A stretch of DNA of 26,649 bases, from IMG/VR virus record IMGVR_UViG_3300037418_002962, positions 1 to 26,649 of that record. The stretch is one strand, 5' to 3'. This stretch comes from a virus. Lineage: Duplodnaviria > Heunggongvirae > Uroviricota > Caudoviricetes. Positions 9,227 through 21,684 of this stretch are shown here, piece by piece. Made by a program: the position numbers and the translations under genes. The notes beneath the pieces are model-generated. The model saw only the letters and a program-made list of their open reading frames with translations. It searched no databases and was not told where the DNA came from. Each line of letters begins with the position of its first letter. Positions within the stretch are counted from its first letter, which is position 1.

Positions 9227-9306
9227 AATAAATAGTTGTGGATCGCGAGGCTGTAACCTCCATCCACAGTAAAAACTTTCAAAGAGTTCTCACAATGGAT
9301 ATTTAT
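9227..9306 (+). promoter_or_regulatory. late promoter (AATAAATA) plus structured leader of GIY-YIG gene, copy 1
   Basis: 65/78 nt identical to the reverse complement of 21605-21682, with compensatory changes in two stems. Confidence 0.8.
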
Positions 9307-9996
9307 CATCAAACTTTACCAGTAGAAGCTTTATTTCCTTTACAACTTTGCAAAATTTATAAAGCAAAAAATATTATTAATAATAAAATATATATTGGGT
9401 TCACTACTTTAAAATTAAATAAAAGAATATATAAACATAATAATGATTCAACTAAAGTTTATAAAGATAAAAGAAAGAAAACTTATTTTAATAATGCTAT
9501 TTCTAAATATGGAATAGAGAGCTTTGATTGGGAAATTTTATATTGGTCATTTTATCCATTTCATTGTAAAAACATAATGGAATCATATTATATAAAATTA
9601 TATAATAGCTGCTATAGAAAAGAAAATGGGCATGGATATAATGGTACTTTAGGCGGTGAAGGAGGAATGGGAAATCCTGCTTTCTTTAAAAATAAAAAAC
9701 ATTCAGAAGAAACAAAAGAAAAAATGTCTTTAAAAAGAAAAGGAATAAAACATTCCAAATCTCATGTTAAAAATCTAACAGAAGCTACAATAAAAAGATA
9801 TGAAAATAGAGACGATAAAAAATATTATTGTTTAGTAACAAATGTAATTACAGGAAGTGAACAAACTACTAATAATCTAAGAAGATTTTGTTTAGATAAT
9901 AATTTATCTTATGATTGTATGCATAAAGTATTAAAAGGTAAAAATAAATCTCATAAAGGATTTATTGTAAGATACATTTATAGAGAAACTTCATAA
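9295..9996 (+). CDS. GIY-YIG homing endonuclease with NUMOD3-like and C-terminal HTH domains
   Basis: KIYKAKNIINNKIYIGFT, GYNGTLGGEG, KKHSEETKEKMS; start placed at ATG 9295 (MDIY) because the upstream extension is the shared leader. Confidence 0.9.
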   Translation: MDIYHQTLPVEALFPLQLCKIYKAKNIINNKIYIGFTTLKLNKRIYKHNNDSTKVYKDKRKKTYFNNAISKYGIESFDWEILYWSFYPFHCKNIMESYYIKLYNSCYRKENGHGYNGTLGGEGGMGNPAFFKNKKHSEETKEKMSLKRKGIKHSKSHVKNLTEATIKRYENRDDKKYYCLVTNVITGSEQTTNNLRRFCLDNNLSYDCMHKVLKGKNKSHKGFIVRYIYRETS

Positions 9997-19187: not shown

Positions 19188-19197
19188 ATTTTTGTGG

Positions 19198-19205
19198 TAT
19201 AAATA
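19198..19205 (+). promoter_or_regulatory. T4-type late promoter
   Basis: TATAAATA. Confidence 0.7.
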
Positions 19206-19214
19206 ATTTACTTA

Positions 19215-19276
19215 TTTGACTCTGAGTTGCGGGGTGGAGCAGTCTGGTAGCTCGTTGCAACTCAGAGCCAGATTTT
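19215..19276 (+). ncRNA. hairpin RNA containing the 5' ~30 nt of an initiator tRNA-Met (not a complete tRNA)
   Basis: TGCGGGGTGGAGCAGTCTGGTAGCTCGTTG enclosed by the perfect stem CTCTGAGTTGC/GCAACTCAGAG; no anticodon, T-arm or CCA follows. Confidence 0.6.
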
Positions 19277-19297
19277 CACTATAAGAAAGTTTAAACA

Positions 19298-19588
19298 ATG
19301 AATATAAATGAACGTCAAAAATGGTTCAATGACAATAAAGAATTTTTCATTGATGGATATCTTACTCAAAGATATTTAAATGGTGATATTCCAGATTATT
19401 CTCTTAACAAGAAGGAAACTAAAATGAATTATGCCCCTTATTCTGAGGAACAGTTAAAGGAACGTGAAAAGTCCATGACAATTGTTCCAGAACTTGAATA
19501 TATTTGTAAATCTTGCAATGATACTGGTGTTATCACCAGAGAAGGCAAGGAATATGCCTGTAAAAATTGCAAGATTTATGAAGACTGA
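19298..19588 (+). CDS. hypothetical protein with C-terminal zinc finger
   Basis: CKSC...CKNC; an internal AAGGA-ATG (MNYAPY) may be the real start. Confidence 0.55.
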   Translation: MNINERQKWFNDNKEFFIDGYLTQRYLNGDIPDYSLNKKETKMNYAPYSEEQLKEREKSMTIVPELEYICKSCNDTGVITREGKEYACKNCKIYED

Positions 19589-19999: not shown

Positions 20000-20781
20000 T
20001 TATGCACTGGATTTTACAAGATACTTTCCAGAATGAGCCAGAGCAGCAGGAAATGATTGAAATCCTGGAGAAGCTTGATATCCCTTATTCTGTCCATAAG
20101 GTTGTTCCGTTCGTTGGTGAACTTATTCCAACTCCAGATCTTACTACAAATAATGTAGTCTGTTTTGGTTCGTATTCCATGAGGCGTGTTGCAAAAGAGT
20201 ACGGATGGACTCCAGGTGTATTTGATCTTTTTGAGCATAACTTCCTGAAGCAGAAAGAGCATTGGAGAAAGCTTATGTTGAATTATGATTCAAAGGTCTA
20301 TCCTTTCAAGGATGTGCCAGAATTTTATTCCCCATATTTTATCCGTCCTATTGAGGATACGAAATATTTTGCAGGCAAGCTTTTCAATCCTGATGAGTTT
20401 CAGGAGTGGCAACATAACGTTTGTGAGCTTAAACTTGATTATGGGAATTCTCTGAAGCCAGAAACATTAGTGCAGGTTTCAAAGCCAAAGGAAATTTATT
20501 CAGAGTACCGTTTCTGGATTGTTAATGGTAAGATCGTAACTGCTTCACTTTATAAAAGAGGTAGTAGAATTATCTATGATTCAGAGGTTGGTGAAAAATT
20601 TCATGATTTTGTTAGGATGGCAATTAATATCTGGCAACCTGACAAAGCTTTTGTGATTGATGTTTGTGATACTCCAGAAGGACTAAGGATTGTTGAAATC
20701 AACACCATCAATGCATCTGGATATTATGCTGCAGATATCTACAAGCTTGTAGAGGCTTTTGAAAGGAACTTTAATGAATAA
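19996..20781 (+). CDS. ATP-grasp domain protein, R2K clade (DUF4343-like)
   Basis: FIRP...K.F.G, EYRFWIVNGKIV, FVIDV...IVEINTINASG. Confidence 0.85.
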   Translation: MIMHWILQDTFQNEPEQQEMIEILEKLDIPYSVHKVVPFVGELIPTPDLTTNNVVCFGSYSMRRVAKEYGWTPGVFDLFEHNFLKQKEHWRKLMLNYDSKVYPFKDVPEFYSPYFIRPIEDTKYFAGKLFNPDEFQEWQHNVCELKLDYGNSLKPETLVQVSKPKEIYSEYRFWIVNGKIVTASLYKRGSRIIYDSEVGEKFHDFVRMAINIWQPDKAFVIDVCDTPEGLRIVEINTINASGYYAADIYKLVEAFERNFNE

Positions 20782-21616
20782 TTTCTTTACATTTATATCC
20801 TTTATATTGGTTTACTTTGCCGTTTGCAACTCTATACATGTGACCACTATGTAAATTATTTTCCCGACAAAATTGTTTCATATTAGTTACAATAAACGGA
20901 GAACTATCAAAATAAGTAAATTCGTATATTTTACAAACTTTTTCTAACTTAAATCCCATAGTTTGGGACCTAGGAACTCCTTCTTCTTTATACCATATTA
21001 ACCAGTTTTCAGTTGATCCTTTAGAAATCCTTCCAGATGTTAATTTTAAACTTATTGTACAATAAGATATTTTATGTTCTTTACAAAATTTCTCTAAGCT
21101 TCCATTAACTTCATATTCTATACCATCAGGAGATTTTAAACAAATTATTTTTGCAGAAGGATTGTTTTCACCACATACTAAGGGATTATCTAATCGCCAT
21201 GCACTAATCTTTGCTTTTGTTTCTGGAGTTCTATGTTTTCCATATAAGTAATGATTTTCTCCTGTTTTTTGGAATTTTGATGGTCCTATTCCGCCATCTA
21301 ATCCATTTTCAAGAATTAAATTTGCCCACTCTTCTGATTCGGCAATATTATTCTCTTCCGAGAAATTTATAGCGAATTCTGTTAAAGATTTTTCATCAAT
21401 AAAAAGTTCATACCATAAAGTTGTAATATCACTACCATGAATTTTTAGATGTCTTTTCCAATATTTACCTGAACCTTTGTATTTTATTGGATCTTTTTTG
21501 GTTGTTTTGCCAAAATATTTTAGGCCAGTGATATTGTGTTGTTTTATATAAAGATAAGTAGGTATAAAATCAGAATTGTTGGCATTTGCGTTTTCAGATG
21601 TTAAATAAATATCCAT
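20771..21616 (-). CDS. GIY-YIG (Seg-like) homing endonuclease with NUMOD3-like and repeated HTH domains
   Basis: YLYIKQHNITGLKYFGKT, YKGSGKYW, YGKHRTPETKAKIS; start placed at ATG 21616 (MDIY). Confidence 0.88.
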   Translation of the reverse strand: MDIYLTSENANANNSDFIPTYLYIKQHNITGLKYFGKTTKKDPIKYKGSGKYWKRHLKIHGSDITTLWYELFIDEKSLTEFAINFSEENNIAESEEWANLILENGLDGGIGPSKFQKTGENHYLYGKHRTPETKAKISAWRLDNPLVCGENNPSAKIICLKSPDGIEYEVNGSLEKFCKEHKISYCTISLKLTSGRISKGSTENWLIWYKEEGVPRSQTMGFKLEKVCKIYEFTYFDSSPFIVTNMKQFCRENNLHSGHMYRVANGKVNQYKGYKCKEIIH

Positions 21617-21684
21617 TGTGAGAACTCCCTTAAAGTTTTTACCGTGGTTGGATGCTTCAACATCACGAACCACAAATATTTATA
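21605..21684 (-). promoter_or_regulatory. late promoter TATAAATA plus structured leader of GIY-YIG gene, copy 2
   Basis: Homologous to 9227-9306 with compensatory base changes. Confidence 0.8.

Follow-up and report, generated by a model that had tools for sequence, protein, structure and literature searches.

Homing endonucleases need to cut rival genomes and to spare their own phage, and the solution found in T4 combines late promoters, mRNA hairpins and autorepression. Antisense control of a transposase is said to operate in the RNA-IN/RNA-OUT system of IS10/Tn10, in work attributed to Simons and Kleckner in 1983. The T4 late promoter occupies positions −13 to −6, where A at −13 is the commonest variant (PMC2988020). 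In the T-even phages and in Aeh1, the endonuclease genes of I-TevI, I-TevII, I-TevIII, segB and mobE carry late promoters and hairpins that bury the ribosome site, and in phage 25 a hairpin that was left unexplained precedes the ribosome site of one such gene (PMC2988022). In ocean metagenomes, Dassa et al. (2009) noted hairpins that contain TATAAATA ahead of GIY-YIG and Vsr-like genes of fractured gene loci, and took these hairpins for translational attenuators (PMC2677866). According to Millard (2010), as cited in PMC2984593, the cyanophage S-PM2 produces CfrI, an antisense RNA of about 225 nt opposite a homing endonuclease gene and psbA, which is co-expressed with the endonuclease gene. The PeSL cassettes of T4-like phages are modules of an early (sigma-70-type) promoter and a stem-loop terminator in hyperplastic regions, which form exchange points at gene boundaries (PMC2839356, PMC4122927).

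Here, we describe a repeated cassette of about 85 bases that precedes two endonuclease genes in the window, which is the first 26.6 kb of a 243,684-bp IMG/VR virus record of a T4-like phage with 34% G+C. Like the T-even and Aeh1 genes, it has a T4-type late promoter directly upstream of a homing endonuclease ORF, an RNA structure at the translation start and, as proposed below, limited nuclease expression. However, in the known genes a single stable mRNA hairpin masks the ribosome site and is missing from late transcripts, whereas the cassette has a fold on the opposite strand, weak and mismatched mRNA hairpins, and a second, inward promoter motif in the first codons. The likeness to RNA-OUT of IS10 lies in two promoters (promoter motifs in the cassette) that face each other where a selfish-element gene begins, and in an antisense RNA of about 70 nt (a predicted one in the cassette), which has an imperfect stem and lies over the translation start; the cassette differs in its phage late promoters and in having two hairpins instead of one, and there is no sequence relation.

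Like the RNA predicted here, CfrI comes from a T4-like phage and lies antisense to a homing endonuclease gene, but it is longer and linked to psbA, and S-PM2 has no match to the two-hairpin covariance model of the cassette (R2) at E values up to 10. Like the cassette, the hairpins of Dassa et al. are conserved, go with a late-promoter motif and lie 5′ of endonuclease genes that are free-standing, belong to several families and come from uncultured marine phages. That study proposed neither covariation nor a strand test, a second promoter or an antisense RNA; by their description, these hairpins may be the same or a related element. PeSLs are also short, repeated modules of a promoter and a stem-loop that mark modular exchange. 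However, they have early promoters and are not tied to endonuclease genes, and the cassette falls outside this class with its late-type motifs, its covarying stems and its extension inside the ORF. No family of Rfam 15 matches the cassette: the window gave no match at the gathering level, and a search by E value of six cassette-bearing loci returned only an unrelated RNA elsewhere in L145. On this IMG/VR contig, an abiF RNA (RF03085) at L145:2818-2854 (+) scored above gathering (46.7 bits, E = 5e-6), about 1 kb downstream of an endonuclease gene.

Phage record and endonuclease genes

The record encodes T4-type replication and recombination proteins, which include SbcCD-like gp46/47, a helicase and a ligase and show only about 41% identity to those of cultured phages. 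Many of its large ORFs have NATAAATA 20–45 nt upstream, which suggests that T4-type late promoters operate in this phage. The genome has at least 11 endonuclease-like ORFs (a PF01541 search and one HNH). The seven endonuclease genes examined are all inserted antisense to two neighbours of shared orientation, and each runs at its 3′ end 11–19 nt into the convergent neighbour; for the copy 1 ORF, this neighbour is a helicase gene. The two ORFs in the window are as follows.

9295–9996, + strand: copy 1 ORF, homing endonuclease of 233 aa with GIY-YIG and NUMOD3, antisense to both neighbours
20771–21616, − strand: copy 2 ORF, endonuclease-like, 281 aa, with NUMOD3 and a shared C-terminal module, antisense to both neighbours

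The initial annotation took these for two unrelated GIY-YIG genes. The assignment stands for the copy 1 ORF, and the divergence is evident from the pairwise identity of 30–41% among the proteins behind copies 1 to 3. However, neither Pfam nor profile comparison gave a match to a GIY-YIG domain in the N-terminus of the copy 2 ORF, although this ORF carries NUMOD3. Since a C-terminal DNA-binding module is common to the copy 1 and copy 2 proteins, they are not fully unrelated. Residues 1–104 of the copy 2 ORF, with the motif Y-L-Y-I ... K-Y-F-G-K-T-T, recur behind cassettes of other phages (L204 and L201), and its N-terminal domain may be a divergent or new nuclease domain. In a tblastn search of the endonuclease family against cultured phages, all identities were below 60%, with 29–45% among the matches listed. 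The closest homologue was P0005, with 69% identity.

Organization of the cassette

Copy 1 (9227–9306, + strand) and copy 2 (21684–21605, − strand) align without gaps and are identical at 66 of 80 positions; the count made by hand in the initial annotation was 65 of 78. A search of the whole record with copy 1 returned copy 2 at E = 4.7e-19, and a third copy at G000:224964-225042, identical to copy 1 at 73 of 80 positions, precedes an ORF that starts with MDIY. Between copies, the identity forms a sharp block that runs from the late-promoter motif to the inner motif and stops after codon 4. The genome contains six copies in total, two of them in the window, according to a structural scan and the covariance model R1, which found nothing else of note. 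In all six, NATAAATA lies upstream and is followed by the cassette, a ribosome site and the ATG of an endonuclease-like ORF, where the distance from NATAAATA to the ATG is 58–66 nt. One of these ORFs is a Mob-like HNH ORF, which has a weak Pfam HNH match (E = 0.004) and an HHIIPK-type motif, and whose leader and first six codons are common to a GIY-YIG gene.

On the gene strand, the cassette consists of the late-promoter motif, a spacer of 3–5 nt, the hairpin HP1, CTCTAA, the hairpin HP2, CAGC, the ATG and a TATTTAT box. HP1 has an outer stem of 6 bp, a conserved internal loop of C-R-C on one side and Y on the other, and an inner stem of 4–5 bp. HP2 has 5 bp on this strand, and its loop holds part of the Shine-Dalgarno sequence. 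The box lies 3–8 nt inside the ORF and is the late-promoter motif on the other strand. The hairpins as folded on the opposite strand are denoted HP1′ and HP2′ below. The features of copy 1 are as follows.

9227–9234, + strand: late-promoter motif AATAAATA for the endonuclease gene, assigned from the sequence; its complement forms the U-rich tail of the predicted opposite-strand RNA
9237–9268, − strand: bulged hairpin HP1, outer stem of 6 bp or more and inner stem of 4–5 bp, assigned from covariation and the − strand fold; terminator-like before the U-rich tail
9269–9293, − strand: hairpin HP2′, 9 bp including G.U pairs, with a 7-nt loop complementary to the Shine-Dalgarno region
9300–9307, − strand: TATTTAT box in codons 2–4, which reads GATAAATA on this strand; predicted late promoter of the opposite-strand RNA
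9227–9294, − strand: predicted cis-antisense RNA of about 66–68 nt, with its start placed by the T4 spacing and its end by the U-rich tail

On the + strand of copy 1, only 4–6 bp can pair (9274–9288) around the Shine-Dalgarno sequence at 9281–9286. Copy 2 has the same parts in the reverse orientation.

21677–21684, − strand: late-promoter motif TATAAATA of the endonuclease gene, complementary to the U-rich tail on the + strand
21644–21673, + strand: bulged hairpin HP1, whose stems differ from those of copy 1 through compensatory changes
21618–21642, + strand (opposite the gene): hairpin HP2′ of 9 bp, whose loop complements the Shine-Dalgarno region
21604–21611, + strand: box, which reads AATAAATA on this strand and lies in codons 2–4 on the gene strand; predicted late promoter of the opposite-strand RNA
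21617–21684, + strand: predicted cis-antisense RNA of about 66–68 nt, both ends placed by prediction

Three further sites of the record touch on this organization. A seventh endonuclease gene (start at 209,982) is arranged in this way too, except that its hairpin is simpler and its box precedes the ATG. At G000:C1:162500-162533, a cassette-free endonuclease gene has the late-promoter motif followed immediately by its own inverted copy (AATAAATA ... TATTTATT) upstream of the ribosome site, and this layout is a minimal form of the inverted-promoter arrangement of the cassette. In the window, a weak R1 match (E = 1.4) at 19196–19312 (+) extends from an ATAAATA motif and lies upstream of a 96-aa ORF (19298–19588); it is probably just a late promoter and leader.

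Distribution of the cassette

In uncultured T4-like phages, this portable cassette stands ahead of endonuclease genes of both the GIY-YIG and the HNH type. In this genome, the covariance model found it always at endonuclease genes. Among 80 IMG/VR loci of the P0003 family, whose members frequently have the N-terminus M-x-I-Y-S/T-I-Y-K, R1 matched 40 and R2 matched 46, always just upstream of the ORF. Four of the five further phage records tested have 3–8 cassettes each, ahead of several GIY-YIG subtypes, HNH enzymes and unclassified ORFs. A strict pattern search of IMG/VR gave matches in at least 120 stretches, and R2 applied to 80 of these loci gave 96 matches. The portability proposed in the initial annotation was thus supported across unrelated endonuclease genes, including HNH; the two-state mRNA switch proposed with it was not supported, as described below.

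The outer motif is ATAAATA or CTAAATA in nearly all members of the family. In about one quarter of the cassettes collected by pattern (L221, L224, L230, L232 and 17 further loci), the outer promoter is (A/G)CTAAATA in place of NATAAATA and the inner box stays ATAAATA, which may reflect a different late-promoter consensus in those phages. At L207:1501-1582 (−) and L189:2413-2502 (+), the downstream ORF is absent or cut to 54 aa; the box has decayed there and the hairpins are intact.

With the covariance model, the cassette was not found in S-PM2 (NC_006820; for which R2 was used with E up to 10), T4, Aeh1, Aeromonas phage 25, HTVC008M or DLP_6, and neither megablast nor blastn gave a match in cultured phages. 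It was also not found in 80 helicase loci of the nearest IMG/VR relatives, which have 42–47% amino-acid identity. An exact pattern of the copy 1 type had no match in IMG/VR and close relatives of P0001 were likewise not found; within the searched records, the copy 1 subtype occurs in this genome only.

Covariation of the hairpins

Both hairpins covary strongly. Between copies 1 and 2, the compensatory differences pointed out in the initial annotation are present, namely A-U to U-A in the outer stem and G-C to U-A in the inner stem. In the six genomic copies, all cells are paired (66/66), and 8 of the 11 pairs show double changes. RNAalifold applied to an unfitted MAFFT alignment of 28 copies recovered HP1 with compensatory changes at 10 of its 10 pairs. 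In 41 distinct copies, all 16 pairs have double changes and 95% of the cells are paired, compared with 30–47% in slid controls, and this value was reached by none of 500 shuffles. These cell counts are not independent events because the members of the family are related, and in the alignments A9 and A12 the rows were picked for the register of HP2.

The cassette could also act as DNA, either as a PeSL-like recombination module or as a hairpin in single-stranded DNA during repair, which would let nuclease ORFs swap behind a common leader. In favour of this, the identity ends abruptly at the edges of the cassette and the ORFs behind it differ to the point of being GIY-YIG in one case and HNH in another, exchanges of this kind are mediated by PeSLs (PMC4122927), and G.T is the best-tolerated DNA mismatch. 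However, recombination homology favours identical sequence over compensatory stem changes, the strand-specific wobbles described below and the conserved asymmetric loop indicate that one strand is folded, and the motif positions coincide with transcription signals. We therefore consider an action as DNA to be very improbable.

Strand of the conserved fold

It is the strand opposite the gene that carries the conserved fold. Over all sets, the gene strand has 122 A.C and 7 G.U among its non-Watson-Crick cells. The excess is found in each of them, with A.C and G.U counts of 27 and 2 in the first set, of 10 and 1 in 15 independent copies, and of 85 and 4 in a further 83 copies, which were gathered by a pattern that demands the box and the two motifs. 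Since A.C on the gene strand corresponds to G.U on the other strand, this excess fits a fold of the opposite strand.

The same conclusion follows from HP2, which gains three pairs on the opposite strand only. The first pair of this extension is A.C on the gene strand, and thus G.U on the opposite strand, in 51 of 53 and in 83 of 83 copies; the second is U-A; and the third covaries (CG 43, UA 6, GC 3). A covarying third pair beyond a near-invariant mismatch is sensible only if the mismatch is a wobble, which indicates the opposite strand, and the conservation of CTCTAA and CAGC is explained by this extension. In an unfitted MAFFT alignment of 24 opposite-strand copies, with 8 bp in HP2′ and 11 bp in HP1′, all 455 of 455 cells are paired, compared with 33–44% in slid controls, and 17 of the 19 pairs have double changes.

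The predicted opposite-strand RNAs of copies 1 to 3 form two clean hairpins each (z = −4.5, −3.2 and −3.7), and their fold energies are −23.4 kcal/mol for copy 1 and −17.9 kcal/mol for copy 2. The sense late leaders have z = −1.3 and +0.4, which is no more structure than in shuffles. The energy of the hairpins fails to discriminate the strands, with means of −9.7 and −9.4 kcal/mol.

These results bear on the mechanism known from T4, in which the mRNA itself would be locked. A read-through RNA would pair the promoter with the box after the AUG and form a three-way junction with both hairpins that hides the start, and a late-start RNA, which lacks this arm, would be translated. Such a lock matches the known logic of I-TevI, segB and mobE (PMC2988022), and late-promoter-containing hairpins occur upstream of such genes in the data of Dassa et al. 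(PMC2677866). The 7-bp pairing of promoter and box is present in the minimum-energy fold of copies 1 to 3 with a probability of 0.55–0.95, and the helix is predicted in about half of the family. However, it consists of just seven A-U pairs, no covariation is found at the positions that flank promoter and box, and the fold fits the other strand. Read-through is also unlikely here because the genes are antisense to their neighbours, and the late leaders are structured no more than shuffles, as given above. We therefore regard the lock, which is the tenable form of the switch proposed in the initial annotation, as quite improbable.

In the initial annotation, the switch was based on a long-range helix that excludes the hairpins and buries the AUG. 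Forcing this competing extension is 3.7–9 kcal/mol worse than keeping the hairpin, and its part formed by GUUGUG and CACAAU is private to copies 1 and 2. Since the minimum-energy fold keeps both hairpins together with the 7-bp promoter:box helix, hairpins and helix are not mutually exclusive. On the gene strand, HP2 has 4–5 bp, and its loop contains half of the Shine-Dalgarno sequence; its energy is about −2 to −4 kcal/mol in those rows that yielded this hairpin. A stable mRNA-strand hairpin that buries the Shine-Dalgarno sequence was not found, and the near-invariant A.C blocks the extension of HP2.

Another role on the mRNA would be that of a 5′ stabiliser with an insulated ribosome site, which would give the late mRNA of a mobile gene uniform expression wherever the gene is inserted. 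The predicted late start lies at the base of HP1 or 2 nt inside it, and 5′-terminal protective hairpins resemble HP1 in this position, with the start at the base of the hairpin. We give hardly any credence to this role, because the A.C mismatches, one of them near-invariant, weaken the fold of the gene strand, and because the box and its conservation in three frames would be left unexplained.

Other assignments of the hairpins were tried and rejected. A K-turn, an RNase III site, and CsrA-type and RegB-type hairpins, judged by their generally known features, do not fit, since the family does not conserve the G.A pairs, helix length or GGAG that define them. If the late RNA is truncated, AUGGAU can pair with the 3′ arm of HP1 in copies 1 and 3, but in neither copy 2 nor the rest of the family, and we take this pairing for a coincidence.

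Inner promoter motif and predicted opposite-strand RNA

On the opposite strand, the box reads (N)ATAAATA. Among 53 copies, it is exact in 34, TATATAT in 11 and TATTTAC in 4. It is preserved in three reading frames, giving the N-termini x-I-Y, M-I-F-I, M-Y-L and M-F-Y-L-Y, and two homologous HNH proteins have frame-shifted N-termini with the nucleotides of the box unchanged. As had been suspected for MDIY from the two copies in the window, the conservation of these codons thus reflects a constraint at the nucleotide level. M-x-I-Y is also a common N-terminus in the P0003-type GIY-YIG family.

When the T4 spacing is measured from the box, the predicted +1 falls on an invariant G, 1 nt before HP2′, and the fold fills exactly the space between this predicted start and the U-rich tail. 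At least five U in eight occur within 0–2 nt after HP1′ in 48 of 53 and in 83 of 87 copies; this tail is the complement of the outer promoter and is therefore not independent evidence. It is retained in two lineages without the outer promoter. The U-rich tail is broken by A and begins up to 3 nt past the stem, and a simple terminator scan made no call on it. No consistent sigma-70-like site was found at the cassette. Promoters and terminators were called from their motifs throughout. A terminator on the opposite strand for the flanking operons was also considered and rejected, since the simple scan calls none and a good tail is confined to copy 3 and to those lineages that have no outer promoter.

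The best explanation, which we hold tentatively and with somewhat less than even confidence, is that the cassette encodes a cis-antisense RNA of about 66 nt that would cover the leader of the endonuclease gene and restrain the nuclease. The cassette would then be a portable control element that travels with free-standing homing endonuclease genes of T4-like phages, in which two T4-type late-promoter motifs face each other about 75 bp apart. The outer motif would drive the endonuclease mRNA. The inner motif, which is the TATTTAT box in codons 2–4 and points out of the gene, would start the RNA of about 66 nt, which would begin 1 base before HP2′, with its 7-nt loop against the Shine-Dalgarno sequence, continue through the G+C-rich bulged HP1′, and end in the U-rich tail. 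This small RNA would be fully complementary to the endonuclease leader and, by analogy with RNA-OUT of IS10, would pair with it loop first and lower the translation or stability of the nuclease mRNA. As in the IS10 type of control, the opposite-strand fold overlaps the translation start of its target, and the loop of HP2′ is complementary to the Shine-Dalgarno region. We infer from the arrangement of these signals that the box may be an active promoter, that the RNA may end at the tail and that the nuclease may be repressed.

Two points limit the antisense reading. The TATATAT variant, which accounts for about one fifth of the family, would be a weak or dead promoter, yet the hairpins are kept, and this counts against it. 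In addition, since both promoters would be late, the opposite-strand RNA could only damp the expression of the nuclease and not time it.

The opposite-strand fold and the inner promoter might instead serve the flanking genes, where the box would restore late transcription cut by the insertion, and HP1′ with its tail would be a leader, an attenuator or an insulator. The position of all seven endonuclease genes, antisense between co-oriented neighbours, agrees with such a function, and the seg and mob ORFs of T4 embed promoters for downstream genes (PMC2988022). In four genomic copies, the box is 83–89 nt upstream of the ATG of the divergent neighbour, one of which is a baseplate wedge gene, and it may therefore serve the neighbour instead. 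However, whereas 14 of the IMG/VR loci are antisense to their neighbours, 10 of 32 are co-oriented with both, so that an outward promoter would serve no downstream gene there, and to some extent the cassette is already seen to be equally conserved next to co-oriented neighbours. Furthermore, the space from the predicted start to the tail is exactly occupied by the fold, and the hairpin loop complements the ribosome site of the nuclease itself. A role for the flanking genes is therefore unlikely in our judgement, and the cis-antisense RNA is the better-supported mechanism.

Implications

Beyond this genome, it is possible, but on balance doubtful, that the cassettes represent a large undescribed class of cis-antisense RNAs of about 66 nt that would govern the expression of homing endonucleases generally in uncultured T4-like phages. 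In each case, the RNA would arise from a late promoter in the first codons and end at the complement of the gene's own promoter, and the rapid compensatory turnover of the stems would give each of several nucleases within a genome a private regulator.

In metagenomic phage contigs, the covariance model picks out free-standing endonuclease genes together with their true start codons, whereas gene callers often run the ORF through the hairpin, as in P0004. If the antisense RNA is true, the cassette would pack overlapping signals into little space: one 8-bp motif would serve one strand as a promoter and the opposite strand as a terminator tail, and a second promoter would lie inside protein-coding codons. 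The promoter and antisense RNA would then form a self-contained module that moves with the nuclease gene or is swapped across enzyme families, and environmental T4-like phages would have a different, and apparently very common, solution to the control of their homing endonucleases.
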